Source of the DNA: Oligoflexales bacterium
GTDB taxonomy: Bacteria > Bdellovibrionota_B > Oligoflexia > Oligoflexales > JAGOVF01
Reading direction: 5' to 3'
DNA length: 64,000 bases
Assembly (NCBI GenBank): GCA_018060885.1
Contig: JAGOVF010000001.1
Span: forward strand, 2,481-66,480
The notes beneath the pieces were generated by a model. It did no database searches, was not told where the DNA came from, and saw nothing but the letters and a program-made list of their open reading frames with translations. Position 1 is the first letter of the stretch. Every line of letters begins with the position of its first letter. The position numbers and the translations under genes are program-made. Of the stretch, positions 1,370 to 47,799 are shown piece after piece.

Positions 1370-1371
1370 AA

Positions 1372-2043
1372 CTATGGCTCTCCCTGCAAGTTTGAATTTA
1401 AAGCTTCTGATTTTATTGATGATGCAAGAGAAGATTGTGCGGGTGTAGAAATTGTCAGCGAAATAGGCTTTGGTATTAAATTCTTTAATAGTGCACATAA
1501 TTCTTGATGCGCAGTCTGTGCTTCTGGATAGTTTGATTTTCTATCAGCGAATTTCACCAGATCGCTCAAACTTAGAAGACTGTAAAGCTTTTGATATTTC
1601 TCCTCACTTAAAGGCAGCTTGTTTTTCAGAGGGAATTTCAGCTCACCTAAAGTCATATCTGTAGCTGGAAAATGAAAAGTGAGTTCAATGAATAAACGCG
1701 CAGCTAAACTCAAACGATAGTAATAATCCCTTTGTACTTCATAGTCAGAGAATTCTTTTGGAGGTGAAGTCTTTAAAAGCTCATCTAAGCAAGCATGGCG
1801 TAAATCTAGCGCAAAATTAACCGGAATAATTTTCACGTTTTTAGACTTTTTATGCCGCCACCAATAGACAAAAGCAAAAACTAGCAAACAAAGTAAAAAT
1901 AAAATAGCTCCCCAAAATACATAGTCAAAATAAAAAAATTCGACCAAGCCCTGCACATCATGCGGAGGTCCCTGCACGTCAGGAGTTGGCAGGGTGTTTG
2001 GCTGAATTTGTGCTTGGGCTGTCTTTAAAAAATTATCCTGCAA
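1372..2043 (-). CDS. Single-TM membrane protein, DUF4381-like by position in the Bat operon
   Basis: 223-aa ORF with one hydrophobic helix (FWGAILFLLCLLVFAFVYWW). It sits between the DUF58 and BatA genes, where DUF4381 proteins usually occur. The family assignment rests on synteny only. Confidence 0.55.
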   Translation of the reverse strand: MQDNFLKTAQAQIQPNTLPTPDVQGPPHDVQGLVEFFYFDYVFWGAILFLLCLLVFAFVYWWRHKKSKNVKIIPVNFALDLRHACLDELLKTSPPKEFSDYEVQRDYYYRLSLAARLFIELTFHFPATDMTLGELKFPLKNKLPLSEEKYQKLYSLLSLSDLVKFADRKSNYPEAQTAHQELCALLKNLIPKPISLTISTPAQSSLASSIKSEALNSNLQGEP

Positions 2044-2911
2044 GCTCTCGCCTCCGCAGATAACGCACTAAGACTGGAACTGCCGGCTCATTGGTATTCA
2101 CTGTAAATTGATTGACGTTATATCTTCGAAGCATTTCTTTGGTATATTTTTTGGTCAGCATGATTTGTTCGTTATGTTTTTTTTGGAATTCTCGTGAAGA
2201 CGTATCGACCAAAACATACTCGCCGCTTTCAAGGTCTTTTAGTTGCACGACGCCAATTTTCGGAACTTGTTGTTCGTTTGGATCTTCTATAGAAATACAA
2301 GTCAAGTCATAACGCCGCGCCGCCAGCATGATACTTTTTTCATAGGAATCCGCCATAAAGTCGGACAAGAGAAAACAAGTCGCTTTTCTTTTTTGGACCT
2401 TTAATAAAAAACTTAAAGCCGCATTTATATCTGTTCTACCGGCGGCAGAATCGCGACTCAAAATCTGCCTAATAATATTCCAAACGTGGGCACGGCCTTT
2501 TTTTGGTGGTATGTAATGCTCGACCTTATCGCTGAACAAAAGAATTCCGACTTTATCGTTGTTCCTAATCGCCAAATAAGCCAGCAAAGCCGCAAGTTCT
2601 GCAGCAATAGAAATCTTTTGCCGCTTTCGTGAAGTAAAATGCAAAGATCCGCTGACATCTACCAACAACATAATCGTCAATTCGCGTTCTTCGCGGAAAA
2701 CTTTCACAAAAGGCTTTTGCATTTTTGCTGTCACGTTCCAATCGATCGCTCTCACATCGTCGCCCGGAACATATTCGCGAACTTCTTCAAACTCCATACC
2801 AATGCCGCGAAACGCGCTGGCATACTCACCCGACAATGCAGAATTAGCCAAATAACCGGCTTTTATTTGCACTTCTTTAATCTGACGAATGAGCTCGGCG
2901 TCGAGTATCAA
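2033..2911 (-). CDS. DUF58 domain protein (MoxR partner)
   Basis: Motifs VREYVPGDDVRAIDWNVTAK and LLVDVSGS. It overlaps the moxR stop by 4 nt, as in operons. Confidence 0.85.
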   Translation of the reverse strand: MILDAELIRQIKEVQIKAGYLANSALSGEYASAFRGIGMEFEEVREYVPGDDVRAIDWNVTAKMQKPFVKVFREERELTIMLLVDVSGSLHFTSRKRQKISIAAELAALLAYLAIRNNDKVGILLFSDKVEHYIPPKKGRAHVWNIIRQILSRDSAAGRTDINAALSFLLKVQKRKATCFLLSDFMADSYEKSIMLAARRYDLTCISIEDPNEQQVPKIGVVQLKDLESGEYVLVDTSSREFQKKHNEQIMLTKKYTKEMLRRYNVNQFTVNTNEPAVPVLVRYLRRRELAG

Positions 2912-3906
2912 GGTACGTCCACTCCTTCAAGCAGCCTTGTCACTATATGATCCGTGCTAATATTATCTGCTTCTGCCTCAAAGGTTGGAGTGATGCGGTG
3001 GCGCAGTACATCGAGTGCGACGCTTTTAACATCTTGAGGAGTGACAAAACTACGGCCCTCAAACAAGGCATTTGCCCTTGCGGCTTTTTCGAGAAAGATC
3101 GATGCCCGCGGGCTCGCGCCAATTTCAATGAGTTTTTCGAGTTCCTTCAAACGTGCTCGCGGTTCTCGAGTCGCGAAAACCAAATCGACAATATAAGTAC
3201 GCACTTTATCGGCGACGTGGATTGATAATAATGCTTGCTGCATTTCTAATAGTATATTCGCATCAATAACGGCATTGATACTTACTTGCGATTTTTGCAT
3301 AGCGCGCCGCATAATTTCAACCTCATCGACCGCCGAGCCATAACTCACTTTGACTTTAAATAAAAATCGGTCTACCTGCGCCTCAGGTAAAGGGTAGGTG
3401 CCTTCTTGCTCGATGGGGTTTTGCGTGGCTAATACCATAAACGGCTTATCAAGAATAAAGGTCTGGTCACCTAAAGTGACTTGTTGTTCTTGCATACATT
3501 CGAGTAGAGCTGACTGAACTTTTGCGGGGGCGCGATTGATTTCATCAGCTAATAAAAGATTGGTAAAAACTGGGCCTTTTTTGACTTTGAAATCGCCACT
3601 TTTGGGCTCATAAATCTGAGTTCCCAACACATCTGCTGGTAACAAATCTGGAGTAAATTGTATGCGCTTAAAAGCAAGATGGCAGGTCTGAGCTAGGGCG
3701 TTTATTGTTGTCGTTTTTGCCAAGCCTGGCAAACCTTCTAATAATACATGCCCGCCACAAATTAAAGCCATCAATAAACGATCGCTTACAGCGTCTTGAC
3801 CGACTATTTTCTTTTTAATTTCCTGGCGCACTTGTTGAATCTTTTCGCCAAAACGCAGCAATGTCTTTTCAAACTCAGGACTAACAGTGTCTACAATCTG
3901 ATTCAT
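2908..3906 (-). CDS. MoxR-family AAA+ ATPase
   Basis: Walker A GLPGLAKT, Walker B LLADEINRA, and VLATQNPIEQEGTYPLPEAQVDRF. RBS AGAGGA lies upstream of the ATG. Confidence 0.9.
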   Translation of the reverse strand: MNQIVDTVSPEFEKTLLRFGEKIQQVRQEIKKKIVGQDAVSDRLLMALICGGHVLLEGLPGLAKTTTINALAQTCHLAFKRIQFTPDLLPADVLGTQIYEPKSGDFKVKKGPVFTNLLLADEINRAPAKVQSALLECMQEQQVTLGDQTFILDKPFMVLATQNPIEQEGTYPLPEAQVDRFLFKVKVSYGSAVDEVEIMRRAMQKSQVSINAVIDANILLEMQQALLSIHVADKVRTYIVDLVFATREPRARLKELEKLIEIGASPRASIFLEKAARANALFEGRSFVTPQDVKSVALDVLRHRITPTFEAEADNISTDHIVTRLLEGVDVP

Positions 3907-3997
3907 GAAAATCCTCTAAGCAAAATGAGCTCAAATACAAAATTTAAGCTTATTTTAGACAAACTCAGAGGAAAGACAAGTATCCAGTTGCATGAGA

Positions 3998-4987
3998 TTA
4001 TTGTAGGAGGCGTAATCCCTGCAAATAGCCGGGTACTGCGTTGCGCGATTGGTAGTAACTACTACTTAGAGATAGCCCTTGTTGCGACTTAATGGTAGGA
4101 GATTCTTCGCTATTGCCCAAAACGCTATAAGGTGCAACTTTTGAGTTTGCATCATAAGGCGTTGAGCTATTATGCAGCATCATTCCTGGGGAGCTAAAAA
4201 TAAAGCCTGTTTCTAGGATCGACAAATCATTTTGAATTTGTGTATTTTGCATTTCAGCACTTTGCCCTCGCAAAATTGCAGAGCTCTCACTAAAAACCAC
4301 AGCCTTTGCAGGAGCACTTAAAACTTGTAAGTAAGCTTTTTGTCTGCCGATCGCTAAATCTTCAATTTTAAATTGATCATTTTCCTGATTAAAGCTTACT
4401 TTTTGCAGCGAATTTTTCGCGCTTATTTCTTTTAGAGCTCCGTCATCATCTGGCATAAGAAGTGCCAAAACATAAGAGCGGGCAGAATCCAATTTTGAAA
4501 GATTTGCTAGAACGATGTCAATTGTTATACCCGCATCTGAAAAATCGACAGGTAACAGATTAGAAGACGAACTTAATAAACTAAAATTAATTTCATAAGC
4601 CATAGATACAACTTCTAAGTCTTCCTCTAACAAATCACTAAAAATTTTTTTTACAATTCTATGCGTCGAATTATTTTCAAGCATAAGCGGTTCAACTTGC
4701 AAAACGCCATCTTCAAATGGCCAATTGCTTACATTGATCACAAAATCAACTTGTGAATCTCCGACTTGCAGCTGTCTAAGCTGCTCATCGCCGTAAGGAT
4801 CACCATGTTGGTTGATTAATAGGCTGCGCTCTCCATTGATGGGAGTCATAGCATCCGATTCCCCGCTATTGTTTGTGGAGCCCTTACATGAAGAAGCAAG
4901 AATTAGATAAAATATAATTTTGTGTTTATTTGAGATCACGGAAGCGCTCCTTGCCTTATTACTTTTTTTGTAACATTCAAAATTCAA
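3998..4987 (-). CDS. Secreted protein or probable lipoprotein, function unknown
   Basis: 329-aa ORF. The N-terminal hydrophobic segment ends in ...LILASSCKG. No recognisable catalytic motif. Confidence 0.6.
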   Translation of the reverse strand: MNFECYKKSNKARSASVISNKHKIIFYLILASSCKGSTNNSGESDAMTPINGERSLLINQHGDPYGDEQLRQLQVGDSQVDFVINVSNWPFEDGVLQVEPLMLENNSTHRIVKKIFSDLLEEDLEVVSMAYEINFSLLSSSSNLLPVDFSDAGITIDIVLANLSKLDSARSYVLALLMPDDDGALKEISAKNSLQKVSFNQENDQFKIEDLAIGRQKAYLQVLSAPAKAVVFSESSAILRGQSAEMQNTQIQNDLSILETGFIFSSPGMMLHNSSTPYDANSKVAPYSVLGNSEESPTIKSQQGLSLSSSYYQSRNAVPGYLQGLRLLQ

Positions 4988-5076
4988 TTCGGAGCTTCGG
5001 GAAATAACTTTAGCGAAATGGCAATAAATTATTTTTTTAGCTATTTTTTTCGAATGCTATTTACTGTTCGTTTATG

Positions 5077-5117
5077 CCGAGCCTAGCCACGCTTTCTAAA
5101 GTAACTCTCAGAGAAGC
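5077..5117 (+). repeat. Motif D, copy 1 (41 nt; 36/41 identical to 23284-23324)
   Basis: ccgagcctagccacgctttctaaagtaactctcagagaagc versus ccaagcctcgccatgctttctaaagtaactctcagaaaaac. Each copy is followed by a small hairpin. Confidence 0.7.
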
Positions 5118-5283
5118 TGTTTGTATCACACAGCTTTAGATATACGAATCACGTTTAACACAGTCATTCTTGTTAGAACATTTAGTATGGAAGAGTGCAG
5201 CACGGAGAATCTGGTGCTAAGGAGTAAGTTAAAAAACAAAGCAGAACGTGTTGCGAATATTATGCACCCAGAACTGAAGCTTA

Positions 5284-5429
5284 CTTATGTAATAAGACCT
5301 GACTTGTCTTAGCCGCCAGAGGAACTGGTGAGGGCAGGACGCCCGAACCGGTAGCGATAATTTTGCCATGGATGGCATAAAAATTGAGCGGTCCTCTGGC
5401 GGCTAAGACAAGTCAGGCTTATTACATAA
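5284..5429 (+). repeat. Family A structured repeat, copy A1 (84-nt conserved core 5316-5399 on a 30-bp copy-specific stem)
   Basis: The core is CCAGAGGAACTGGTGAGGGCAGGACGCCCGAACCGGTAGCGATAATTTTGCCATGGATGGCATAAAAATTGAGCGGTCCTCTGG. Arm 5285-5315 pairs with 5400-5429, with one bulged A at 5297. The element lies 56 nt downstream of the stop of the minus-strand gene 5485..6873. Confidence 0.85.
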
Positions 5430-14352: not shown

Positions 14353-15195
14353 CTACTGTTGCAACAGTGACAAAGCCATTTGTGGAATGCTGTTTGCTTG
14401 AGATAAGACCGAGATTCCCGCTTGGGTTAAAATTGAATTTTTAGTCAATTCAGCTGTTTCTGCGGCAATATCGACGTCTTTAATACGTGAGCGCGCTGCT
14501 GATAAATTCTCAATTGAAATAGATAAATTTCGAATCGTCGAGGTTAAACGGTTTTCGATGGCACCGAGTTTACCGCGCGTCGAAGAGACGTGTTCGATTG
14601 CACTGTCAATAACCGACAAACTCTGCTGCGCATCGAATTTTGTACCGACACCTAGATCAGCCAAACCCATTTGATCGGCATTGACGTCGAGTTGGAAAGC
14701 ATCAAAAGAAATTCGGTCGACACCCAACACGTTGCTACCACCAGTGTTGACTTGAAAATCTAAAGAGCCGCCTGTACCGTCTAACAAATAAGTTCCATTA
14801 AATTCAGTTGAGTTTGCAATTCTATCCATCTCTTCTATGAGAGATGAATATTCTTCCTGTAGATAGCGTCTTTCTTCTGGACCGATAGTATCACTTGCCG
14901 ACTGGACTCCTAATTCTCGTAAACGTACTAAAATATTTTGAACTTCGTTTAAACCACCTTCAGCAACTTGAATCAAAGAAACACCATCTGAGGCATTACG
15001 CTGAGCTTGAACAAGGCCTGTTACTTTTGCACGTAGTTTTTCCGTGATTGCCAAACCGGCGGCATCATCACCAGCTCGATTGATCCTATAACCACTCGCT
15101 AAGCGCTCTAACGATTGATCCAACAATCGGCGCGTTTGCTGTAAATGGCGCTGTGATGTTAACGACGATACGTTCGTCGCAATCCGTAATCCCAT
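14353..15195 (-). CDS. fliC: Flagellin
   Basis: N-terminus MGLRIATNVSSLTSQRHL...LASGYRINRAGDDAAGLAI and C-terminus ...ILTQAGISVLSQANSIPQMALSLLQQ are canonical flagellin D0/D1 segments. RBS GGAGG. Confidence 0.95.
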   Translation of the reverse strand: MGLRIATNVSSLTSQRHLQQTRRLLDQSLERLASGYRINRAGDDAAGLAITEKLRAKVTGLVQAQRNASDGVSLIQVAEGGLNEVQNILVRLRELGVQSASDTIGPEERRYLQEEYSSLIEEMDRIANSTEFNGTYLLDGTGGSLDFQVNTGGSNVLGVDRISFDAFQLDVNADQMGLADLGVGTKFDAQQSLSVIDSAIEHVSSTRGKLGAIENRLTSTIRNLSISIENLSAARSRIKDVDIAAETAELTKNSILTQAGISVLSQANSIPQMALSLLQQ

Positions 15196-21298: not shown

Positions 21299-22347
21299 GG
21301 CCAGAAAGTGTTTTGCCAACATCAATTCTTAAAAGCCCCCAAATATATATCGTAATTTTTGCAATTTTGGTCTTTTTTTTGAGCCTATTCTACGGCGTCG
21401 TTGATCTTGATATTTTTTCTATCATCATGACAGATGCTAAAATGACATCTTATCTCTTTTCAAATACAAACGATTCATTTATTCTTTTTCAAGTGCGTGT
21501 ACCGCGTATTTTTTCAGCTTTACTCGCCGGAGCTTGCCTTGCAGCGGGCGGCGTATTAAGCCAAGGACTTTTTCGCAACGAACTCGCGAGTCCATCTATT
21601 CTGGGCACGAGTGCTGGTGCAGCTTTTTTTGCAAGCTTGGCTTTTTATTTTGCTTGGGCACAAAGTCACTTCTTAGCTGTAGCTGGATCGGCTTTTTTAG
21701 GCGCACTTCTAGCTACATTTATTCTGTTAACACTTTTAACAGGAGTTCATTACACACGTTACAGCTTTTACTTACTGCTCGGAGGATTTGCGCTTTCTAG
21801 CTTTCTTGGCGCATTAAGCAGCTTTATTGTTAGCTTTCTTATGCGCGAACAAATTCAAGCTTTGGCAGTTATGCGTTGGCTTTTGGGCAGCTTCAACTCT
21901 AGTACTTTAGAACAAGTGCAGTTTGCCTTACCTTTGGCGATCTTGGCTTTTATTTTTTCTCTGAAAATTAGTAGAGCATTGAACATTTTGGCTTTAGGGG
22001 AAGACAGCGCCGGCAACCTTAGTATCGACATTAAAAAACTACAGGTTTTATCTTTGCTGCTTATCGCTTTTTTAACGGCTATTGCTGCGGGTCTAGGTGG
22101 AATCATTCCTTTTGTCGGATTAGTCGCACCGCACCTCACGCGCCTTATTCTTGGACCTGAACATCGACAGCTTTTGATCTATAGCAGCATCAATGGAGCG
22201 AGTCTTCTAGTGCTAGCAGATTGGTTCGGCCGAGTAGTGAATCCACCTTATGAACTTCAGGTAGGAATTATTACCTCGCTGTTGGGCGCGCCATTTTTTC
22301 TGCTACTCATTCGTCGCCAACTTCGACAGTCGAGAGAGGCTACATGA
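21295..22347 (+). CDS. FecCD/BtuC-family permease
   Basis: About 9-10 TM helices, conserved GVLSQGLFRNELASPSILGTSAGA, and a 4-nt overlap with both neighbours. Confidence 0.9.
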   Translation: MRPESVLPTSILKSPQIYIVIFAILVFFLSLFYGVVDLDIFSIIMTDAKMTSYLFSNTNDSFILFQVRVPRIFSALLAGACLAAGGVLSQGLFRNELASPSILGTSAGAAFFASLAFYFAWAQSHFLAVAGSAFLGALLATFILLTLLTGVHYTRYSFYLLLGGFALSSFLGALSSFIVSFLMREQIQALAVMRWLLGSFNSSTLEQVQFALPLAILAFIFSLKISRALNILALGEDSAGNLSIDIKKLQVLSLLLIAFLTAIAAGLGGIIPFVGLVAPHLTRLILGPEHRQLLIYSSINGASLLVLADWFGRVVNPPYELQVGIITSLLGAPFFLLLIRRQLRQSREAT

Positions 22348-23126
22348 TCAAAGTGATGAATAAATTCGATCTTTGTTTTGGAACGAGCAAAATCCTTTCG
22401 CAAATCGAACTAGAATTGGCCGAGGGATCATTGACAGCCCTTATAGGCAAAAATGGCTCCGGAAAAACTAGTCTTTTAAAATGCTTAACGGGGTTTTATC
22501 CTTATCTTAATGCATCAATTCTTGTTGGCCCTGAACTAAAACCTCTTTCAGAATTCGACCCAACTCAGCGCGCCAAAACCATTGCGTGGTTGGCAACCAA
22601 TCAGCAGCTCGCTTTTGACTTTACCGTCGAGGAAATTGTCGCTATGGGACGCTACCCATGGTCAAAAGGCTATTTATCTCATCATGATAAGCAGTTGATT
22701 GAAAACTCTCTACAACAATTGGATCTGCAGAAATTACGCCGAAAAAGAATTTTTAGTCTCAGTTCTGGAGAGCAGCAGCGAGTTTATATTGCAAGAATTT
22801 TTGCTCAGGACACGCCGATTATTTTTTTAGACGAGCCCTTTGCAAATTTAGACCTTTGCTACAGCTTGGAGTTTTTTGACTTATTAAACGCGCTTAAAGA
22901 CAAAGGGAAAACAATAGTTCTTAGTATCCACGACTTGCATTTTGTTCAGCAAAATTTCAAAAAAGCTCTTGTGATGCAACAAGGCAAGGTCCTCATCCAC
23001 GATGATATTGAGCAATGCTTTCGCAATGAAGTGTTAAACAAAGCATTTGAACTATATGCCTCGCCTAGCTCGCCAGTCCAAGCACTGTCTTTACAACGAG
23101 TTCATCCACGTGATGTATCCACGTGA
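22344..23126 (+). CDS. ABC importer ATP-binding protein (BtuD/FecE/HmuV-like)
   Basis: Walker A GKNGSGKTS, signature LSSGEQQR, Walker B IFLDEPFANLD. Confidence 0.9.
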   Translation: MIKVMNKFDLCFGTSKILSQIELELAEGSLTALIGKNGSGKTSLLKCLTGFYPYLNASILVGPELKPLSEFDPTQRAKTIAWLATNQQLAFDFTVEEIVAMGRYPWSKGYLSHHDKQLIENSLQQLDLQKLRRKRIFSLSSGEQQRVYIARIFAQDTPIIFLDEPFANLDLCYSLEFFDLLNALKDKGKTIVLSIHDLHFVQQNFKKALVMQQGKVLIHDDIEQCFRNEVLNKAFELYASPSSPVQALSLQRVHPRDVST

Positions 23127-23151
23127 TGCACACTTTTTTGAGCGACTTTCA

Positions 23152-23308
23152 TTTAGAAAGCATTTCGAGGCTTGGATGAACGAGCTGCCAGAGGACCGCT
23201 CAATTTTTATGCCATCCATGGCAAAATTATCGCTACCGGTTCGGGCATCCCGCCCTCACCAGTTCCTCTGGCAGCTCGTTCATCCAAGCCTCGCCATGCT
23301 TTCTAAAG
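23152..23308 (-). repeat. Family A structured repeat, copy A2 (core 23188-23271, inverted relative to A1/A3; 36-bp stem)
   Basis: The reverse complement of 23188-23271 is identical to the A3 core. Arm 23152-23187 pairs with 23272-23307, apart from a 2x2 mismatch at 23164-23165. The element starts 26 nt after the stop of the plus-strand gene 22344..23126. Confidence 0.85.
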
Positions 23309-23324
23309 TAACTCTCAGAAAAAC
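23284..23324 (+). repeat. Motif D, copy 2 (its first 24 nt form part of the right arm of A2)
   Basis: See 5077-5117. Homology to locus 1 extends leftwards through the whole A2 right arm (compare 5066-5101). Confidence 0.7.
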
Positions 23325-23493
23325 AGGCAGCACGCTGTTCCAAGCACATAATTAGCACAAAATCCTGCAACCTTGCAGATCATTTGGCATAGAAGTCTGC
23401 AGTTCGGCAAGATCTGCAGGTGTGAGTATGTTGAAAAACAAATGCCTTATTTGTGTATTGATCTGCGTATGCACCCTAAGCTGACAATCACTT

Positions 23494-23645
23494 GAGTCTA
23501 TAGCAAAGGCCTTGTATTGGCCGCCAGCCAGAGGAACTGGTGAGGGCGGGATGCCCGAACCGGTAGCGATAATTTTGCCATGGATGGCATAAAAATTGAG
23601 CGGTCCTCTGGCTGGCGGCCAATACAAGGCCTCTGCTATAGACTC
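23494..23645 (+). repeat. Family A structured repeat, copy A3 (core 23528-23611; 34-bp stem)
   Basis: The core is identical to rc(A2) and 82/84 identical to A1. Arm 23494-23527 pairs with 23612-23645, with one mismatch at 23506. The element lies 52 nt downstream of the stop of the minus-strand cyclase gene. Confidence 0.85.
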
Positions 23646-23696
23646 TATGAAATTCGTTTAAATGTGTGCATCACCAAGTTAAAAATACGCAAAAAA

Positions 23697-26168
23697 CTAC
23701 TTGTGTTTAAACGTATAAACACCATCCCAATTATCACCAGGAGGATGCTCACGGTAGTATTGAATTCGGTTTAAATAAAGCAAACTTGGGCCATCATCTG
23801 GACGGATTTTAATGCATTGCATAAAAAGTTTTTCAGCATCGTCCCATGCCTGTTTCTGATATGCCAAACGTCCTGCTGCGAAGCTTTGAACCATTTCTGA
23901 AATTAAATGTTGCTGACGAATGACATCAGGTCTAGTCACTTCAAATACTCGTACCGGTTCATTCTTTCCTTTGACGCGAATATCATCTAAGTCCCTAGTA
24001 ATGAATTTGCCAGGAGTTAGCTTTGCATGAGTGAACTCGCTAATCATGATTTTAATTCCATACTCTTTAGTCAAACCCTCTAAGCGCGCACCCAGGTTTA
24101 CCGCATCACCCATAACAGTATAAGTAAAGCGTTCTCCTGAACCCATGTTGCCGACCGCCATAGCCCCAGTATTAAGCCCCATTCCAATATCAATTTCTGG
24201 ATAACCACGCTGGCGAAAGTCATGTTTGAGAGCATCCATGGCATAAAGCATTTGCACAGCAGCATCGACACCCAGATCAGGATGCAAGGGTGCTTCAATG
24301 GGGGCACCCCAAAATGCCATGATGGCATCTCCGATATATTTATCAAGTACGCCACCGCTGCGCAGGATTATACTCGTCATCGGTGTAAAATAGTCATTCA
24401 TCAATTCACAAAGCTTTTCTGGCGAAAGGCTCTCAGAAATCGTCGTAAATCCCCTGACGTCAGAAAAAAACACAGTAAGTTCTTTCTTTTCTCCGCCTAG
24501 TTTTAAAGCTCCTGGATTATCGAGCAATTGAGAGATGACCTCTGGACTCAAATAGTGGGCAAATGCGCCTTTGACTTTTTTACGTTCCTGTTCTTCGGTA
24601 AAGTACTTGTAGAGAGTTATCACAATAAAAAGACCAGAAATCTCAATAAATGGAACTCCCATATAAGTCCAAACACCTTTGGCGTTGAACATATAAAAGC
24701 GATCAAAAAGATAATAACCCAATAAAAAGAGCACGACCAAAACACCGGCATAGGCCGCACGGCTAAATAAAATAATCGGCGTGAAAATAAGTCCAACTAT
24801 CAAAATGATATAAAGTTCTTGAGCATAAACACTTGCTGGACGCTTCAGAAATTCACCGCTCAAAATATTGTCCAAGGCCGCGGCATGGTTTTCGACACCA
24901 TCCAGAGCTGGGTCAAAAGGATTGGGCCTTTGATCGTTGCCTCCGATGATGGTCGCACCGAGCATCAAAACTGCACCTTTGAGATTCTTTTTTTCTTCCG
25001 CAGTGAAGCTATTGTGATAAGCATCTGCGAGACTGTAATGATGAAAGCTGCGCCCAGGTCCACGATGATTGAGCAGCAGCCTGCCTAAGCCATCTGGATC
25101 AACTGGTATATCTATAGTGTTGGTATCATCTTTGCGATCTACTAAACTGATAGATTCCACACCGTTTTGATCAAAGAATGCGACGATATCACGCTCTGCA
25201 GCTTCCGCCGCGACTTTTAAGGCCATCGAAGGCATCAGATTTCCATCGATTACCGAGACGAGACTTACCCACCTGGCTATAGCGTCATTGTCAGAATTAT
25301 TACTAAAAAACCCGAAATGCGGTGATGCAGCGGAAATGACCGGAATGTTTGTTACGGCTGCGGGAATTTGCAGTTCTTTATAATCAGTCAACTCTTTACC
25401 TTCTGGCAAAATGACTGCCTGGATCGCCGATCCTTCTGCCATCGTGTCGACACCTTCGTAGCGCCGCTCAGTTCTGCCAGCTGCCTTGACCTCATGTTCC
25501 ATTCCGAAATAAAAGTAGCCAAGTACAATATTGCCAAAATTCTGAATGCCCCTAGCAAAACTAAGATCTCCTGGGCTTTGCTCGAGCATTTTATCGAGTT
25601 CGGCGAAAGGGTTCTGCCACTCATTGGCTAAAGACTTCTGTGTTTTATTCTGGCGAATTTGTTTGAGCAACGGCAACACATCTGAAACACTAGCTTTTTC
25701 GGCCTCACTGAATATTGCGTCAAAAGCAATCCAAGATACGCCGAGTTTTTTAAGGTTATTAAAAGCTTGTTCGTAATAACGGCGAGAAAAAGGAAAACGG
25801 CCAAATTCGTTGATTGCTTTTTCATCTATGGCTAAAATACCAATGTTTTTCGTGGGTTTTTTTGGCCCGCGCACCGTAAATCGATGGTCGAGGAGCTTGG
25901 TTTCCATACTAAATATAAAATCATTCTTTCGCCCAAAGTTTTGATAGTGTATGAAGGTCAGATAGTAAAGACTCCCAACTATTACAGCGGCTACAATTAG
26001 AATTGGGGTTTTCTTTTTAAGTTCTGATAGCCATGCTTTTTTTTTCTGGTTTTTTGCAGTCACGAATTTATTGTCCTTCAAATGTTGAAATATATTAAAC
26101 CGATCTTTGCCCTTCGAGGAATATATGAGAATAAATAGAACAAATCGAAACGAACAAAAAAATTTCAA
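23697..26168 (-). CDS. CHASE2-sensor class III adenylate/guanylate cyclase
   Basis: N-terminal TM, a periplasmic CHASE2-like region, a TM cluster, then the cyclase core LTVFFSDVRGFTTISE...KYIGDAIMAFWGAP and a conserved C-terminal tail. The exact start is uncertain (possible internal TTG/GTG). Confidence 0.85.
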   Translation of the reverse strand: MKFFCSFRFVLFILIYSSKGKDRFNIFQHLKDNKFVTAKNQKKKAWLSELKKKTPILIVAAVIVGSLYYLTFIHYQNFGRKNDFIFSMETKLLDHRFTVRGPKKPTKNIGILAIDEKAINEFGRFPFSRRYYEQAFNNLKKLGVSWIAFDAIFSEAEKASVSDVLPLLKQIRQNKTQKSLANEWQNPFAELDKMLEQSPGDLSFARGIQNFGNIVLGYFYFGMEHEVKAAGRTERRYEGVDTMAEGSAIQAVILPEGKELTDYKELQIPAAVTNIPVISAASPHFGFFSNNSDNDAIARWVSLVSVIDGNLMPSMALKVAAEAAERDIVAFFDQNGVESISLVDRKDDTNTIDIPVDPDGLGRLLLNHRGPGRSFHHYSLADAYHNSFTAEEKKNLKGAVLMLGATIIGGNDQRPNPFDPALDGVENHAAALDNILSGEFLKRPASVYAQELYIILIVGLIFTPIILFSRAAYAGVLVVLFLLGYYLFDRFYMFNAKGVWTYMGVPFIEISGLFIVITLYKYFTEEQERKKVKGAFAHYLSPEVISQLLDNPGALKLGGEKKELTVFFSDVRGFTTISESLSPEKLCELMNDYFTPMTSIILRSGGVLDKYIGDAIMAFWGAPIEAPLHPDLGVDAAVQMLYAMDALKHDFRQRGYPEIDIGMGLNTGAMAVGNMGSGERFTYTVMGDAVNLGARLEGLTKEYGIKIMISEFTHAKLTPGKFITRDLDDIRVKGKNEPVRVFEVTRPDVIRQQHLISEMVQSFAAGRLAYQKQAWDDAEKLFMQCIKIRPDDGPSLLYLNRIQYYREHPPGDNWDGVYTFKHK

Positions 26169-28392: not shown

Positions 28393-28517
28393 GGGATTGT
28401 CGTAAATCGACGATAACGGCGTTAGGACTCATTCGAAAATCCTCATGTACTTATGAAGTACACTGCGGTTTTCTCATTTCATCCTGCCTTGTTCTCCTCG
28501 ATTTTCAACAATCCCTT
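28391..28517 (+). repeat. Family B structured repeat, copy B1 (79-nt core 28419-28497 between a copy-specific outer stem)
   Basis: The core gcgttaggactcattcgaaaatcctcatgtacttatgaagtacactgcggttttctcatttcatcctgccttgttctcc is about 66/79 identical to 39824-39902. The outer stem aagggattgt (28391-28400) pairs with acaatccctt (28508-28517). The left arm overlaps the stop codon at 28390-28392. Confidence 0.8.
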
Positions 28518-39796: not shown

Positions 39797-39921
39797 GAGG
39801 CTGCAGGGGAATTAACGATTACTGCGTTAGACCTAACTCGAAAATCCTCATGTACCCAAAAGGTACACTGCGGTTTTCTCATTACGGTCTGCCTTGTTCT
39901 CCTTAATTCTTCTGCAGCCTC
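39797..39921 (+). repeat. Family B structured repeat, copy B2 (core 39824-39902; 19-bp copy-specific outer stem)
   Basis: The outer stem gaggctgcaggggaattaa (39797-39815) pairs with ttaattcttctgcagcctc (39903-39921). Two of these pairs are G:T only on the plus strand. See B1 for the core. Confidence 0.8.
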
Positions 39922-40073: not shown

Positions 40074-41645
40074 TTAGAGTTGGCCAGGTGCTGGTGAGTT
40101 CTTGTAACGACTTCGAGCGCGCACCAGGATGTTGAACCGACAGGAACAAACTTTTCCATCGGGTGCTAAGCAAGGACTGGTGAACTCTGCATCGAAAGGA
40201 GCTTTTGCGATGAGAGTTGGTTTATATTGATTGGGGCCCGACATCGGTATTTTGAACAAGGCATTGCGTTTAAATTCTGCATAAGGGCCTTTGCCCAACA
40301 TCTTTTCAGTCACATCCGTGGTCAGCCATAAATCACCGTGAGAATCAAACATTAAATTGTCTGGGCAATAAAAGCCAGACTGCTGTCCCCCAGCAATAAA
40401 TGGTTCGGCATTGAAATGCCTTCCCGAATAATCTTCTTGTTCGCTTATACGAAGCACATAGCCGTTGTAATTGCCACGTGAAACACTGTTTGTGAGGGCC
40501 ACATAGACTGCGCCGCTCTTAGGGTCAATCTTAATGTCTTCGGGGCGTTCCATCGCAGTGCCGCCAATCAGGCGAGCTGCGGCATGACAATTAATTAACA
40601 CGTCCAATTGAGATTTGAAGTTCTTCTTTAGATCGGCATTTTTATCTATATCAAGAGCAAGCCATTCACCGCGGTCTATACTTGCTACATAAAGCGTTCC
40701 GTTATCTAGAGATGTAGCAGTATCTGAGACAAATTTATAAATACAACCGCCATCGCGATCATTTCCACTATAGGCCACAGCTCTTTTATCTTTGCTAATT
40801 ATTATCGTGGCACCTTCATGACGAAAACGGCCAAGTGGAATTAATTTTTTTGCCGAGCCATTAAAAGGATTGATTTCCGTCAACCAGCCGTAATGTTCGG
40901 GCGGTCTTTTGTCGAGAGTTTCCCAGCCAAAGCTCGATGACGAAAAGTCTCGCTTTCCTGTTTGCATATTCAAGACTTGATCACCAAAAAAATCTTGGTA
41001 ATTTTCTTCTCCAGAAATAAAGGTTCCCCAAGGAGTCTTACCGCCAGAGCAATTAGCGAGAGTGCCCTTTGCAAAACTCGATCCAGCTATCTGTTGTTGC
41101 CCACTAAATTCTATAATTGTATTTGCATCTAGACGACGATTGTAAGGATCATTTTCGATAAATTGCCAAAATCCATTTTCTCTCTTTTCTACCGCGATGA
41201 TACTCACTCCGACCGCATGCATCTCCTTTTTCAGATGTTCTGGCGAGACAGGCTCATTTTCGGAACGTCCACTCACATACAAGGGATGAAATTCTTCGTG
41301 ATTTATTCCGAGTAAGGCAAATCTCAGCGAGTCCTTGTTGGGGTAAGGAAAACAGGTGATCAAATCATTGCAATCACCAAAAACATCCTTTTTGTGGCTT
41401 AGAACATCGCCGTAGTTGATGAGTAATTTAGCTTCATACCCAGGAGCTAGACTGAGTTCATCAGAATCTTGCTCTAAGGTATTCGAAAATTTGCTTTGAA
41501 TGTTTTTTGACTTTTTATTAGTAGCTTTGTGGTCTGCAGCAAAGGCACTAGGAAATTGCAATAACAAAGGCAAAGACGCGCCTAACTCAAAGGATTTGAT
41601 AAGTGCCGATCTTCGTTTAATTTGATTTTTTCCCGATAATTTCAC
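40074..41645 (-). CDS. phoX: PhoX-type (DUF839) Tat-secreted alkaline phosphatase; 3' end frameshifted
   Basis: Twin-arginine signal (KRRSALIK...AFA). Family motifs GGKTPWGTFISGEENY, GRFRHEGA, ERPEDIKIDP and PDNLMFD. GTG start with RBS GGAGG. The conserved C-terminus continues in the -1 frame to 40006 (see finding). Confidence 0.85.
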   Translation of the reverse strand: MKLSGKNQIKRRSALIKSFELGASLPLLLQFPSAFAADHKATNKKSKNIQSKFSNTLEQDSDELSLAPGYEAKLLINYGDVLSHKKDVFGDCNDLITCFPYPNKDSLRFALLGINHEEFHPLYVSGRSENEPVSPEHLKKEMHAVGVSIIAVEKRENGFWQFIENDPYNRRLDANTIIEFSGQQQIAGSSFAKGTLANCSGGKTPWGTFISGEENYQDFFGDQVLNMQTGKRDFSSSSFGWETLDKRPPEHYGWLTEINPFNGSAKKLIPLGRFRHEGATIIISKDKRAVAYSGNDRDGGCIYKFVSDTATSLDNGTLYVASIDRGEWLALDIDKNADLKKNFKSQLDVLINCHAAARLIGGTAMERPEDIKIDPKSGAVYVALTNSVSRGNYNGYVLRISEQEDYSGRHFNAEPFIAGGQQSGFYCPDNLMFDSHGDLWLTTDVTEKMLGKGPYAEFKRNALFKIPMSGPNQYKPTLIAKAPFDAEFTSPCLAPDGKVCSCRFNILVRARSRYKNSPAPGQL

Positions 41646-41648
41646 ACC

Positions 41649-41679
41649 AGGCCTCCATTAATATTCATTAATGAGGCCT
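41649..41679 (-). promoter_or_regulatory. Hairpin sequestering the phoX Shine-Dalgarno
   Basis: The minus strand reads AGGCCUCAUUAAU-gaau-AUUAAUGGAGGCCU, which is 13 bp with one bulged G. The GGAGG SD (complement of 41652-41656) lies in the 3' arm, 6 nt before the GTG start. Confidence 0.5.
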
Positions 41680-41716
41680 AGTCTATGTGATTTAGAGAAA
41701 CAAACTAAGTGCAAAT

Positions 41717-44479
41717 TTACTTATGAGCACCCAAAGCTTTTGTAGAGCTAACGCCACCAAATGCAGCTTTTTGCGCCGAGCGCTTTTGCTGGTATTCTGT
41801 AAACCAAACTAGAATAACAGGAGCAATAAATGTTGTAGATAGGGTTGCAAGACAAACGCCAAGTGCCATAGCCATTGCAAAATCCCAAATTTGTCCTGTC
41901 CCAAAAATCAAAATACCAACCAAAGATAAAAAGGTCGAAATTGAGGTGTTTATTGACCGAGCAAGTACTTCATTTAAAGATAAATTAACAATTTCTGCGT
42001 AGGACCTGCGACCTTGTATGGCCGTATTCTCTCTAATTCGATCGAAAATAACGATAGTGTCATTTACTGAATAACCGACCACTGTTAAAAAAGCTGCCAC
42101 TGTCGTCAAATCAAAAGAGCGCCAAAAGAACACGTACATTCCCATTAATAAAAATACGTCTAAAAACATTTTAGCTACCGCACCAGGTCCATAACGAATA
42201 TCAAAACGAACCGCGATATAAAGCAGAATAAAAAATATGGCAATAAATACTGAAGCCACACCCTGATTGCGCAACTCTTTTCCAACTTGTGGTCCAACAA
42301 AATCGACTTGCAATATCTCGGGGCGAGATTTTTCGAACTTTTCTAAAACTAGAGTCTGTAGCTTTTGAACATTTAATGCATCTTTCACATTACTTTGCTC
42401 TTGTTCTACTTTTGAATCCTTTCCATTAGCATTATTGGCACCTGCCCGATCAAAGCGCAAAAGGTACTGCTTTTTGCCGCCCTCTAAAGCTTGCACAGAC
42501 ATGGAATCAATCCCAGCTTGCTCCGCAACTTCGCGAATTTCACCGGGCTCAACATTTTCACCAAAGCCCAGCATAAGTTCAGTGCCACCGGCAAAATCGA
42601 CGCCCCAATTGACACCTCTAACTCCTGCTAGTCCAACGATAAAAACAGATAAAACTATGCAAGCTGCAGTAATGGTTTTACCGAGACGAAGAAAATTAAA
42701 ATTAAATACATGCGAGTTAGAAGTTTCTCCCAACCAGGTGCGAATTGCTGCATCTGACTTTGCGCGCGACAAGGCTAAATCAAACAACCATTTTGTCACC
42801 GCAAGCGAAGTGAACATCGAAACTAATAAGCCTATCATCAATGTGACGGCAAATCCGCGAATTGGACCGGAAGAATTCGTTTCTAGCAAGACTAAAGCCG
42901 CGATCAAAGTCGTCACGTTTGCATCAAAAACCGTCCAAAAAACTTTGTTATATGCAACTTCCACTGCTTTTTTTGCATTTTTACCTGACTGCAACTCTTG
43001 CCTGATTCGCTCGTTAATTAAGACATTCGCGTCGACCGCCATCCCCAAAGTCAAAATAAATCCGGCGATACCCGGCAAGGTCAAAGCGAAGCCAAATACC
43101 GCCATTAGCGCTAACAAAAATATGCCATTTAATACCAAAGCAATACAGGCTATGACTCCTGGTCGACGATAGTAAAATACCATAAAAGCCAAAACTAAAC
43201 CGAGCCCGAGCAATACTCCTTTAACACCTTGATTCGCGAGTTCAGGACCAAGAGAGGCTCCGACTTGGCGTTCTTCAAGAACAGTAATTGTTGCAGGAAG
43301 CGCGCCTGATTTCAGAATCAAAGATAAGGCCTGCGCCTCTTCTAATGCTTCGTTGTAACCACGACCACTGCCGAGAGTTATAGAAGCCGCGCCGGTAATT
43401 TTTGTTTTCAAAACCGGAGCAGAGAAAATAACGTTATCTAAAATAATAGCTAAACGCTTATTGATATTTTCGCCGCTGACATCGCCCATCCGTTTACTAC
43501 CTGGGCCAGTGAATTTCAAACCGACTTCTGGAAAGGGATCAATGTCGCCACCTTGTTGCACAAAAGCGTCAAGGATGTCTTCGCCCGTCATAGCAGTCGA
43601 AGCTTGCACGACATAACTGCGATAACGCGCTTTGTTTTTATTACCCGCAATTTCCTCGCGTTCGAAAAGAAGTTCTAAATTCTCAGGAACTAGGGGCTTC
43701 AAAAGAGTCGTAAGTTGTTCCTGATTTTCAGATAAAAAATGCGTTTGCTGTCCACTGCGCTCTGTTGTGACTCCAGCTGGCAATTGATTAGTCAAACTAT
43801 CAAAGGCGGTAAAATCTTCAGCTACAAGTTTGAATTTTAACTGAGCTGTTCGCCCCAATAATTCTTTCGCTTTTTGTGGATCGCGAAAACCAGGCAACTG
43901 CACAAGGATGGAATTGTCGGCTCGACGATTGATGAGCGGCTCAGTTACTCCCCACTTGTCGACCCGACTGCGAATCACGCGCTCAGCTTGCTCAATAGCA
44001 CTCGCCTTCACTTGTTTTACCTGCTCTTCGTCATATTTGAATTCGAGGTTGCGACCTTCTGACCCAGCCGCAACTAAACCAAAAAACTCTTTTTTAACTT
44101 CGTCAGCAAATTTTGCGGCGTCAACACCTTCTTCTAATTCTACACGTAAAACCTGTCTCTCTCGGACTAAATAAGCTGGTTTTACTTTGTACCCTTTACC
44201 TTCAGCCCAACGCGTTATTTCAACACTGTCTCGCGCCAACTTTGTATCGACAGCCTCTGCTGTGGACACTCCTAAAACAAGTTGAACGCCACCTTGAAGG
44301 TCAAGTCCAAGCTTCACATGCGAATCCGGCATCCAATTTGGAATTTTTTCTGCCAAGACTTTTTGATCATTTCGTACTTCTTTTGGTTGGCTGAAATACA
44401 CCAACGAAGGCCCGATGCCCCATAGAGCAAGGACTGTAAGGAATGCGAGAAAAGTGAAGCGCCATTTTGTAGCTTGCAT
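41717..44479 (-). CDS. secDF: Fused protein-export membrane protein SecD-SecF
   Basis: 920 aa with two 6-TM SecD/SecF-type modules, each with a large periplasmic loop. Conserved LGLDLQGG, VQLPG and GPSLG-type segments. Confidence 0.9.
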   Translation of the reverse strand: MQATKWRFTFLAFLTVLALWGIGPSLVYFSQPKEVRNDQKVLAEKIPNWMPDSHVKLGLDLQGGVQLVLGVSTAEAVDTKLARDSVEITRWAEGKGYKVKPAYLVRERQVLRVELEEGVDAAKFADEVKKEFFGLVAAGSEGRNLEFKYDEEQVKQVKASAIEQAERVIRSRVDKWGVTEPLINRRADNSILVQLPGFRDPQKAKELLGRTAQLKFKLVAEDFTAFDSLTNQLPAGVTTERSGQQTHFLSENQEQLTTLLKPLVPENLELLFEREEIAGNKNKARYRSYVVQASTAMTGEDILDAFVQQGGDIDPFPEVGLKFTGPGSKRMGDVSGENINKRLAIILDNVIFSAPVLKTKITGAASITLGSGRGYNEALEEAQALSLILKSGALPATITVLEERQVGASLGPELANQGVKGVLLGLGLVLAFMVFYYRRPGVIACIALVLNGIFLLALMAVFGFALTLPGIAGFILTLGMAVDANVLINERIRQELQSGKNAKKAVEVAYNKVFWTVFDANVTTLIAALVLLETNSSGPIRGFAVTLMIGLLVSMFTSLAVTKWLFDLALSRAKSDAAIRTWLGETSNSHVFNFNFLRLGKTITAACIVLSVFIVGLAGVRGVNWGVDFAGGTELMLGFGENVEPGEIREVAEQAGIDSMSVQALEGGKKQYLLRFDRAGANNANGKDSKVEQEQSNVKDALNVQKLQTLVLEKFEKSRPEILQVDFVGPQVGKELRNQGVASVFIAIFFILLYIAVRFDIRYGPGAVAKMFLDVFLLMGMYVFFWRSFDLTTVAAFLTVVGYSVNDTIVIFDRIRENTAIQGRRSYAEIVNLSLNEVLARSINTSISTFLSLVGILIFGTGQIWDFAMAMALGVCLATLSTTFIAPVILVWFTEYQQKRSAQKAAFGGVSSTKALGAHK

Positions 44480-44637
44480 ATCTTAAAAAACTCCCAAAAT
44501 AAAAAAACATCTTCCCAAAGCAACGAGCAGCTCACAGCTACCCGCGATTTAAGGCACCAACCAAGGCTCAACATCATAACCTAAAAGAATTAAATATTAA
44601 ATGGGCAAATTAAAGCATGAGGATCAAAAAGTCATAT

Positions 44638-47600: not shown

Positions 47601-47658
47601 TTGCCGGCGGGCATTCCTCTTGTAATCCAGTATAAAAATCGTTCCAAATTTCTGTCAT
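44638..47658 (-). CDS. SNF2-family helicase with N-terminal SWIM zinc finger
   Basis: SWIM CDLPLCEKRYKNHPCPHVVAAL. SNF2 motifs LADDMGLGKT and DEAQVIKN. Helicase-C motifs ..SLKAGGLGLNLTAAEHVFIFDPWWNPAVEDQAGDRAHRLGQ. Confidence 0.9.
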   Translation of the reverse strand: MTEIWNDFYTGLQEECPPAIWSLGVQLNRSKLVVWDQYKDGDYFFKIAQADASVSAAVTLNPETGDWYCDLPLCEKRYKNHPCPHVVAALLFLKTQNYQVPRGKSIANSLAQINYRFSVNAANQLCLTRFLIQEGQSEFIISSTISSYQSGRLAAPKFLADRIDTNVDQLIFGLVASEINHKIWRKIFELLAEKTDLFFNEKKVFLVQNIPTYTGKVEKIDTTYKLTIERNPQIVSLFENGAALLLDGSLASIRLPDFNLFDKKYLLEASLFSQKEVAFLFGELLPKIEKSGIAISQNLQRQVSIEQVEVYLAAEVQKDSEHMQLVLRIYYGDPPLARWENDQLRTESPDNIPLRNPLAEKQLLQKIENLQFEINKIYKFSPPEAIAVLGKLKAAGVYLKGAAADYFWAGELSPYLEDRENGKTLELKFLLEAKHSLASVAAHSDVDKQRYDIAEIFQAWRSGKNYVPLFKGGFARIPEKWLESYSEIFSDLKSGENKLDLEKISSSKKLLLTDWYLKEGKLLPRSLVASANLLLNTPIEISDYEKPNLSVELRAYQLYGFAWLSRHREIGSGALLADDMGLGKTLQAISAIKGNTLIVAPRSLLFNWQSEIQRFRPELRVALYHGKNRQLFEDKNVVVTSYATLRLDLEKFVEKKWDLIILDEAQVIKNPQSLTSQSIFELAADSRFALTGTPIENNLEELWSLFRFLNPGLLGSLKEFQKNYLQDSGSDFSANSGTSAFEDLKKKIRPFILRRLKREVLSELPEKTELTLYIELSDQEKQIYDSLLQQDVSELKRRLAEGKGMIEALELILRLRQAACHPALLPGHKGFIGSSKVDALIARLLSMVANEQKGLVFSQWTGLLDLIGEELTQRGMNYLRLDGQTKNRAELVEQFQNKTDAKIFLISLKAGGLGLNLTAAEHVFIFDPWWNPAVEDQAGDRAHRLGQTQKVMVHRLVARGTIEEGILQLQESKRQLMSEILGDEEDSGQQTQSHLTAREIANLLQI

Positions 47659-47706
47659 TCTATTCTAAAAGCTCCTGCCTTTGTCAGTATGACCAGTCAA
47701 TCTCGA

Positions 47707-47736: not shown

Positions 47737-47799
47737 ACATAGAAAAATAATTTAGTCTAAATATTAATGACGGAATGAGAAAAAACTAATTGGTATCGT

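Follow-up and report, generated by a model that had tools for sequence, protein, structure and literature searches.

In a 64,000-nt stretch of an Oligoflexales metagenome-assembled genome (GenBank assembly GCA_018060885.1, contig JAGOVF010000001.1, positions 2,481 to 66,480 of the forward strand; hereafter, the window), we found that two inverted, identical repeat copies in the 570-nt gap between a convergent ABC-transporter ATPase gene and adenylate/guanylate cyclase gene form a head-to-head doublet, in a new lineage, of a structured element already known as an orphan, and are not an inversion switch. The element is TwoAYGGAY (Rfam RF01731), to which the two copies (A2 and A3) and a third copy elsewhere in the window (A1) very probably belong. 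The best overall explanation that we can offer is a tentative one, close to an even call and just short of it: A2 and A3 would be a paralogous TwoAYGGAY doublet that, along with A1, acts as RNA of the GGA-bearing strand, serving as a CsrA-binding decoy, sponge or cis-acting site.

An earlier note on this DNA had described inverted identical copies in the convergent gap, about 185 bp apart and part of a repeated family, and all of this held, with cores slightly longer than reported. Positions 23187-23272 (conserved core of A2, − strand) and 23527-23612 (the identical core of A3, + strand) form a perfect inverted repeat (86/86 complementary, compared with the reported 84/84), with the identical cores 254 nt apart and the full hairpins 186 nt apart. 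A search of the 64 kb with the 84-nt core recovered exactly three copies (zero in 100 shuffles), the third being the A1 core at 5315-5400 (84 of 86 positions identical; 5316-5399 in the 84-nt core search, with 2 mismatches). The open reading frames at 23047-23355 and 23352-23627, are artefacts, as already suspected: each translates the identical core in a different frame, and neither has a Pfam match. What the earlier note had missed was the Rfam identity, the separate hairpin formed by each copy, the divergence of the stems, the palindromic character of the locus as a whole (70%) and what remains of a partner element at the A1 locus.

Every copy forms the conserved upper part of a long hairpin of its own, the arms of which enclose a centre of identical length (68 nt). 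Element A2 (23152-23307, − strand), a complete TwoAYGGAY-like hairpin delimited by its inverted-repeat arms and its Rfam match, is closed by a 44-bp outer stem, P1 (arms 23152-23195 and 23264-23307; 95%, the 2 mismatches being tandem G.A/G.A on the − strand). Element A3, a complete hairpin delimited in the same way (23494-23645, + strand), has a P1 of 42 bp (arms 23494-23535 and 23604-23645; 98%, with a single A.C mismatch), and A1 (5286-5428, + strand; Rfam match and arms), which has its own P1 and the common 5′ box and 3′ tail, has 26 perfect base pairs (arms 5298-5323 and 5392-5417) followed by a 1-nt bulge and approximately 11 more pairs (to 5286-5428). Predicted fold energies were −108.2 kcal/mol on the − strand versus −96.2 on the + strand for A2, −111.8 (+) versus −106.1 kcal/mol on the other strand for A3, and −93.4 on the GGA strand versus −83.0 kcal/mol for A1. 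The core comprises, in order, the inner 9 bp of P1 (GCCAGAGGA/TCCTCTGGC), hairpin 1, the junction GGUAG, hairpin 2 and CGGU; in the predicted fold, the apical loop of hairpin 1 is GGGAU in A2 and A3 and AGGAC in A1, and that of hairpin 2 is AUGGAU. Only these inner 9 bp of P1 belong to the core, and the stems beyond them differ in sequence between copies.

Each hairpin is embedded in a larger unit. An alignment of the three upstream regions revealed a conserved 5′ box (CTGAnnnTYACTT) that abuts each P1 (23481-23493 on the + strand; 23308-23320 on the − strand), and a tail box of ~30 nt (ATGAAAnTCGnTnAAA..TGTGnAnnAC) follows the 3′ side of P1 in each of the three copies. The tail box of the A3 unit (23646-23674, + strand), which is inverted with respect to 23123-23137, stops 22 nt short of the cyclase stop codon, and that of the A2 unit (23123-23151, − strand; alignment of the three tails) overlaps at its end the ATPase stop codon (23124-23126). 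The spacer between the element 5′ ends (23308-23493) is itself weakly palindromic in a self-alignment of 23123-23674; it contains one terminator-like hairpin (23379-23364, − strand; terminator scan) and no gene, and a promoter scan of its 186 nt returned no promoter-like site. Overall, 23123-23674 is 70% identical to its own reverse complement, that is, two ~275-nt units arranged head to head. The last codons and stop of the ATPase gene consist of a sequence directly duplicated in tandem (ATCCACGTGATG t ATCCACGTGATG; 23102-23129), which sits exactly at the start of the A2 tail box; it may be a scar of the arrival of the element, with the C terminus of the gene remodelled.

The A1 locus (5068-5412) is 71.5% identical to 23276-23628 (BLAST) and retains a relic of a partner element (5066-5115, + strand), a homologue of A2's right P1 arm together with the box CTTTCTAAAGTAACTCTCAGA, which has neither the core nor the other arm and includes a direct repeat of 90% identity (5077-5115 and 23284-23322). 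Because the right arm of the lost partner has been kept at 5066-5115, a doublet was ancestral at the A1 locus too. Over 21897-23195, the window is matched at 100% identity by an independent Logan assembly (SRR11088468), which ends 9 nt into the core; the left junction is therefore real, and the core is a repeat in the sample. Among the three copies, cores are 98-100% identical, compared with ~70% in the flanks; gene conversion or recent spread accounts best for this pattern, and arm-to-arm correction and/or selection for pairing for the perfect P1 stems. For annotation, the lessons are that an 'inverted repeat' of this kind is two autonomous hairpins and that assemblies break at the core.

TwoAYGGAY was the only Rfam family above threshold in the window, at A1 (5286-5428, + strand; 43.3 bits, match 1-168 of 168, above the gathering score of 43 bits). 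Scored with relaxed thresholds, A3 (23491-23648, + strand; 42.2 bits, E = 2.6 × 10−5) and A2 (23160-23298, − strand; 39.0 bits, E = 1.5 × 10−4) were also full-length matches, in both cases 1-4 bits below the gathering score (local E-values for the three copies ranged from 1 × 10−5 to 1.5 × 10−4); their core is identical to that of the passing A1 at 84 of 86 positions, and most of the remaining difference lies in the variable P1. The motif was defined from 216 representatives from the human gut, Clostridiales and gamma-proteobacteria, under the original identifier TwoGGAY; it was named for its two terminal loops with AYGGAY, and its P1 was described as 'often very large' (Weinberg et al. 2010, Genome Biol 11:R31). 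In the window copies, both loops carry GGAY, hairpin 2 as A-UGGA-U within GCCAUGGAUGGC and hairpin 1 in a loop one nucleotide short of the hexamer, and this short loop 1 (ACAGGAUGU) also occurs in Psychromonas copies of 58-66 bits. GGUAG and GCGGU align to the upper-case AG and CGG of the model, and P1 is large (26-44 bp, 95-100% complementary) and supported by covariation. The internal loop or tandem G.A region of the model (ACAG...CGUCA) is deleted in all three alignments, where the helix is continuous (GCCAGAGGA/UCCUCUGGC), and canonical metagenome copies have GCAG/GGAG at this position; we treated the internal loop as a variant rather than a universal feature because Luteimonas copies that pass the cut-off also do without it. 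On the + strand, 23164-23343 (opposite A2 and including the next small hairpin) gave a weak full-length match to Aggregatibacter sRNA 41 (RF02901; 28 bits versus a gathering score of 97, E = 2.4 × 10−4), a family that may in turn represent an element of the TwoAYGGAY type with its annotation on the opposite strand.

Pairing is conserved where sequence is not. In the alignment of A1, A2 and A3, every one of the 147 pair cells holds a standard pair, and of the 17 P1 pairs that adjoin the core, 13 have changed on both sides and none on one side only; in slid controls, with the partner shifted by 1-3 columns, 29-42% were paired. The core is more stable on the GGA strand (−41.9 versus −32.1 kcal/mol on the other, a difference of 9.8 kcal/mol) because two U.G pairs turn into A.C on the opposite strand. 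Comparison of strands by free folding was ambiguous, with low-GC and type-B copies (see below) favouring the GGA strand and Luteimonas type-A copies the opposite one, through their flanks, and for this question we replaced it with a fixed-pair test: in 33 distinct elements, isolated non-Watson-Crick P1 positions comprised 21 G.U and 3 A.C when read on the GGA strand (P = 3 × 10−4). The core energies and this bias together indicate that the selected molecule is a single strand (RNA or single-stranded DNA (ssDNA)) in the Rfam orientation. A cross-genus alignment (MAFFT and RNAalifold) recovered hairpin 2 alone.

In A2 the GGA loops lie on the − strand, in A3 and A1 on the + strand, and in all three cases this strand is antisense to the adjoining gene. 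The earlier description of each copy as lying beside, and co-oriented with, its own gene is therefore only partly apt: each does abut the 3′ end of its neighbour, but the orientation assigned was arbitrary, and the GGA strand of the doublet is antisense to both genes. Nor would the 3′ regions of the two genes be mutually complementary, as had been proposed, since both transcripts would carry the same core, complementarity arising only within one strand that spans both copies. For such a strand, the lowest predicted energy belongs to pairing between the copies (−297.7 kcal/mol for RNA, −173.6 for DNA), compared with about −208 kcal/mol for the two local hairpins, and we rejected as thermodynamically wrong the idea that local folding beats inter-copy pairing. 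Long-range inter-copy pairing, which would place an 86-bp double-stranded RNA in read-through transcripts, is thermodynamically possible according to these models.

A pattern scan of genomes (one per species) returned 47 loci, about half of them true elements, which occurred in Luteimonas (up to 6 per genome), Bacterioplanoides (3), Psychromonas and Shewanella; five Rfam-passing copies (50-66 bits) lie within 8 kb in Psychromonas sp. RZ5. In metagenomes, the canonical pattern matched at least 120 loci, and the window-type core pattern (GGTAGCGAT..GCCATGGATGGC..TGAGCGGTCC) matched none. Among these genomes and the metagenomic matches listed, there is no variation in the loops, the AG junction or CGG, whereas every stem covaries. 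At an orthologous locus next to purB in two Luteimonas genomes (L031 and L041), the element is present in both and the P1 changes are compensatory, which argues for constraint rather than pure drift. Clustering of neighbouring proteins across the 120 metagenomic matches listed yielded no recurrent family (the one large cluster consisted of translated repeats). In relatives, the gene setting was mixed, with 16 convergent and 8 co-directional arrangements and several copies upstream of aspS, pgk and rpsF. Viral contigs gave 0 matches to the GGUAG-type pattern and 14 to the canonical pattern, 12 of which were near-identical copies of one locus; the viral copy examined (L053) lies upstream of mutS beside prophage-like genes, and not in a phage function. 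At several gamma-proteobacterial loci (L024, at 1900-4300, and L021, both from Psychromonas; L053; L081; L129; and L166), the motif forms the 5′ part of a ~330-nt repeat, the conserved 3′ module of which is a hairpin (GCTTACTTTTTCTTCTG..CAGAAGAAAAAGTA) followed by GTCGCCGACAGGGCGAAA, with a GACGAGCGCAGACGAG-like end in the Psychromonas copies. A TYACTY box 5′ of the elements recurs in several distant lineages, the window included.

The head-to-head arrangement also recurs. All fetched DNA was scanned for elements with two GGA hairpins within a stem, and pairs separated by less than 600 nt were counted: among the loci listed, 18 of the 20 close pairs were head to head and 2 were tail to tail (both genuine), with none in tandem, and an extra head-to-head pair was recognized by pattern only (L129). 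Thirteen of the 18 came from one genus, Luteimonas, and the others from this window and from four metagenomic loci (L081, L085, L149 and L166). On these counts, the arrangement recurs as a property of the family and is no local accident; as far as the accessible literature goes, it has no earlier description. In Luteimonas, a type-A copy faces a distinct type-B copy, beside unrelated genes and across unrelated spacers. Type B (L002, L018, L019, L031, L036 and L041; for example, L019 at 1979-2145) combines GTGGGCCATGGATGGCCCAC and CCAGCCATGGATGGCTGG in a long G-rich stem and stands head to head with the type-A copy at a distance of 120-270 nt, in loci upstream of aspS, pgk, rpsF and purB; types A and B alike have CGAAGCCG motifs at their flanks. 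Elsewhere, hexanucleotide arrays, (GCTCTT)n and (GCTTTT)n, stand directly beside TwoAYGGAY units (L081 at ~690-740 and L085 at ~2440-2490), and the spacers of Pseudomonas-like doublets are filled by hairpins resembling repetitive extragenic palindromes (REPs). Any model of the family has to accommodate a recurrent doublet, whether by divergent control from a shared region, by a mobile unit of the foldback type or by expression that does not depend on orientation.

The anatomy, the family resemblance, the conserved pairing, the strand asymmetry, the presence of CsrA and the recurrence of doublets are observed; that the elements are transcribed, bound by CsrA and regulatory in effect is inferred. 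Each copy would fold on itself into a hairpin of ~150 nt in which the long P1, kept only for its pairing, supports a two-hairpin platform with one GGA in each apical loop (RGGAY and AUGGAU) at a spacing of 33 nt. Function would reside in the GGA-loop single strand, most likely RNA, with units read outward from the spacer or off any transcript that crosses the doublet. The most probable activity would be the binding of one CsrA dimer per element, each RNA-binding face taking one GGA hairpin, so that the elements would sequester CsrA as a decoy or sponge, or serve as cis-acting sites for it. Consistent with this, each element has two GGA motifs at the 33-nt spacing, both in predicted apical loops, in the contexts CAUGGAUG and ACA(R)GGAUGU; the CsrA ligand obtained by systematic evolution of ligands by exponential enrichment (SELEX) is reportedly RUACARGGAUGU, close to these contexts, and a CsrA dimer is said to bind dual sites at spacings of 10-63 nt, a range that includes 33 nt. 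The window itself encodes CsrA (58340-58624, − strand; Pfam PF02599, E = 5 × 10−21; translation MLVLTRKIGE...), a candidate trans-acting partner, and FliW (57573-58145, − strand; Pfam PF02623, E = 7 × 10−43), the protein antagonist of CsrA in FliW-type systems. These two genes belong to a flgK - flgL-like - csrA - fliW run (57573-61105, − strand) of the FliW partner-switch type of CsrA control, and the window also holds a flagellin gene (14353-15195) and flgI (62647-63753). TwoAYGGAY and Escherichia coli CsrB are members of the same Rfam clan (CL00106), and two strong hits in TwoAYGGAY for the CsrA-binding motif led to a motif-based proposal of CsrA sequestration (Gardner and Eldai 2015; PMC4333381). 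TwoAYGGAY has been an orphan motif for 16 years, with CsrA sequestration its only published functional idea; with its presence in Oligoflexales, beside a FliW-CsrA module, its range no longer stops at gut Clostridia and gamma-proteobacteria, and the three-copy system described here is small enough for the CsrA hypothesis to be tested. We regard CsrA binding as the mechanism of A1, A2 and A3 as possible, on a view that leans towards doubt.

Several observations weigh against a CsrA-binding RNA. The link between TwoAYGGAY and CsrA is a motif-based prediction. A consensus scan found no sigma-70-like promoter in the spacer or upstream of A1 (promoter rules in Oligoflexia may differ), a terminator scan found no U-tract terminator after any copy, no GacA/UvrY box recurred within 3 mismatches upstream of 17 copies, and GGA was not significantly enriched in the flanks, leaving only two GGA sites per element. 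All window copies are antisense to a gene and lie just after its stop, as would suit a 3′-end role on the other strand, and both the lack of G.U intermediates in the P1 stems and the far greater similarity of cores than of flanks bespeak DNA-level repeat dynamics. The sole isolated P1 mismatch in the window, in A3, is an A.C on the GGA strand, which leaves the strand unsettled from the window alone. Finally, in the term counts of a preprint of September 2026 (10.64898/2026.09.22.753630), TwoAYGGAY appears 52 times and CsrA 0 times, alongside reverse transcriptase (RT; 14 times) and ssDNA (5 times), with nuclease and recombinase at 0; judged by these counts, the preprint may assign TwoAYGGAY a different function.

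An alternative that we consider unlikely is that the doublet is a selfish or mobile palindrome, either a non-autonomous doublet akin to REPINs, bacterial interspersed mosaic elements (BIMEs) or miniature inverted-repeat transposable elements (MITEs), or a by-product of hairpin-induced template switching, spreading or being homogenised at the level of DNA, with GGA loops that would serve an element-specific enzyme; such an origin would be compatible with an exapted RNA role. The elements are multi-copy and intergenic (three in 64 kb here, five in 8 kb in Psychromonas and up to six per Luteimonas genome), doublets recur by unrelated genes (aspS, pgk, rpsF and purB), a decayed doublet is found at the A1 locus, conserved 5′ and 3′ boxes bound a unit of ~275 nt, and the gamma-proteobacterial motif sits in a longer repeat with its conserved 3′ hairpin module; cores that are 98-100% identical amid flanks of ~70%, and P1 stems that are perfectly Watson-Crick with no G.U, point the same way. 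However, no target-site duplication is visible at 23123/23674, no transposase, REP-associated tyrosine transposase (RAYT), integrase or RT occurs among the ~47 window open reading frames of at least 150 amino acids, and no neighbouring protein family recurs among the 120 metagenomic matches listed. Moreover, copies within one genome differ in their stems, the part that in a MITE would serve as recognition ends, the spacers of the Luteimonas doublets are unrelated, and orthologous retention with compensatory change, together with the 21:3 G.U bias, indicates selection on one single strand. The notion raised earlier, that the 86-bp cores flip 23273-23526 or that a cruciform stalls replication at a fragile site, is hardly credible. 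Perfect identity over 86 bp is longer than the minimum said to be needed for RecA-mediated exchange, and a strand spanning both copies reaches its lowest predicted energy as the inter-copy duplex, but each copy folds locally once single-stranded, and both inversion products would combine P1 arms that are not complementary (13 of 17 positions differ), whereas the stems are 95-98% intact; because both closing stems would be destroyed, the idea is unsupported. The spacer offers no promoter or gene whose orientation could matter, the scanned window open reading frames include no site-specific recombinase, and the Luteimonas doublets pair subtypes A and B, without long identical cores.

The strand opposite the GGA loops might instead be the relevant one, if gene-sense hairpins acted as a bidirectional transcription barrier, an mRNA 3′ stabiliser or an insulator between the ATPase and cyclase genes; an insulating or terminating role had been put forward for testing in the earlier note, and we consider this explanation quite improbable. 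All three window copies begin 25-60 nt past the stop codon of a gene on the opposite strand, the gene-sense hairpins are very stable (−83 to −106 kcal/mol), the terminator-like hairpin in the spacer would end cyclase read-through just past A3, and the weak + strand match to the Aggregatibacter sRNA model likewise shows a long hairpin followed by a terminal hairpin. Yet there is no U-tract after P1 on either strand, gene orientation among relatives is mixed, with copies upstream as well as downstream of genes, the GGA loops and G.U pairs lie on the strand antisense to the window genes, and conservation of a core across phyla is more than a generic terminator would require. A very improbable alternative, the lead for which came from the preprint term counts, is that a trans-encoded RT or an ssDNA-processing enzyme uses the element as its template or recognises it as a structure. 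A long terminal inverted repeat around short hairpins and an invariant G-rich junction loosely resemble a retron non-coding RNA (ncRNA), and the strand bias would fit ssDNA equally well. TwoAYGGAY and 'reverse transcriptase' stand together in the abstract of the preprint (10.64898/2026.09.22.753630), which, by term counts, has 'TwoAYGGAY element' four times, although its topics may be unrelated stories. Against this, a regular-expression search for RT motifs 3-5 was empty in the window, the 47 genome loci, the 14 viral loci and the 120 metagenome matches listed, and retron RTs adjoin their own ncRNA, whereas TwoAYGGAY loci have no conserved neighbour.

A more elaborate version of the CsrA proposal, which we consider fairly improbable, would make the doublet, and not the single hairpin, the heritable TwoAYGGAY unit: a REPIN-like foldback module, or domesticated repeat, that doubles as an RNA antagonist of CsrA. 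The module would spread or be copied as DNA, a transcript entering from either side would carry exactly one copy in the GGA orientation, and RNase III cutting of P1 could free a two-site CsrA decoy that needs no promoter or terminator of its own. If so, the doublet would supply a missing RNA antagonist of CsrA in FliW-type bacteria (this Oligoflexales) and in Xanthomonadales (Luteimonas).

The ATPase gene that borders the doublet (22344-23126, + strand; Pfam ABC_tran), called btuD-like in the earlier note, is the final gene of a PBP-FecCD-ATPase operon (Peripla_BP_2 and FecCD upstream, by Pfam), and the convergent cyclase gene (23697-26168, − strand; Pfam CHASE2 and Guanylate_cyc) encodes a protein with a CHASE2 sensor. 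Exact-protein look-up with the cyclase gave no match, and with the ATPase a single 1.3-kb Logan contig. SecDF, also encoded in the window, shares 100% identity with an NCBI MAG protein and 64% with its next relative. A MoxR AAA ATPase - DUF58 - VWA/BatA run, an operon of the aerotolerance type, lies upstream of the A1 locus (374-3906, − strand) and is an ordinary context. The window also contains a second, unrelated hairpin repeat of 99 nt (28405-28503 and 39810-39908; 81% identical, both intergenic), with covarying outer stems, a conserved centre (GAAAATCCTCATGTAC..GTACACTGCGGTTTTC), fold z-scores of −5 to −8 and greater stability on the − strand, where AGGAG, CAGGAUG and GAGGAU motifs occur; neither copy matched Rfam. 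At 44638-47658 (− strand), a 1006-amino-acid SNF2-family helicase strongly matches the DpdE and ZorD defence models (E down to 4 × 10−121). Five nearby open reading frames (40074-57517), including a Lon-like protease (49622-52267), had no PADLOC match in a scan that left out the adjoining SecDF gene; on sequence grounds, no complete defence system is evident around the helicase within that scan.

Among known systems, retron msr-msd ncRNAs resemble the window elements in their paired terminal inverted repeats around short hairpins and their conserved G-containing junction; they differ in that ~180 TwoAYGGAY loci, among the matches listed, have no adjacent RT gene, that a long msd hairpin is absent and that the outer stem in the window is far longer than the retron a1/a2. 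The likeness to REP, BIME and REPIN sequences is broader, extending to extragenic palindromes in many copies, inverted doublets with a short spacer, a position between convergent genes and a GTAG-like tetranucleotide (in GGUAG) directly 5′ of a hairpin. However, REP units measure 20-40 nt, compared with 150-275 nt here, only the AG of the tetranucleotide is conserved across the wider TwoAYGGAY family, the REP pattern is reversed in the window elements, which conserve their loops and vary their stems between copies, and the RAYT that would be cognate to a REP or REPIN is absent from the ~47 open reading frames scanned in the 64-kb window.

[quoted passage not shown] They carry 4-22 GGA hairpins, compared with two per TwoAYGGAY unit, and have no counterpart to the very long, perfect enclosing stem of the window elements, which in turn have no promoter, GacA/UvrY box or terminator recognisable in consensus scans. 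We know of no sponge RNA established for the FliW partner-switch type of CsrA control found in this host. The closest comparison is with TwoAYGGAY as first described. The window copies straddle the RF01731 gathering cut-off (39-43 bits, compared with 50-66 bits in the seed genus Psychromonas), differ in the missing internal loop, the shortened loop 1 and a P1 of up to 44 bp, and come from a host outside the taxa reported for the motif (human gut, gamma-proteobacteria and Clostridiales). They nevertheless share with it the large closing P1, the GGAY loop of hairpin 1, the AG junction, hairpin 2 with GCCAUGGAUGGC, and CGG, as well as an intergenic, multi-copy distribution independent of any conserved gene neighbour.

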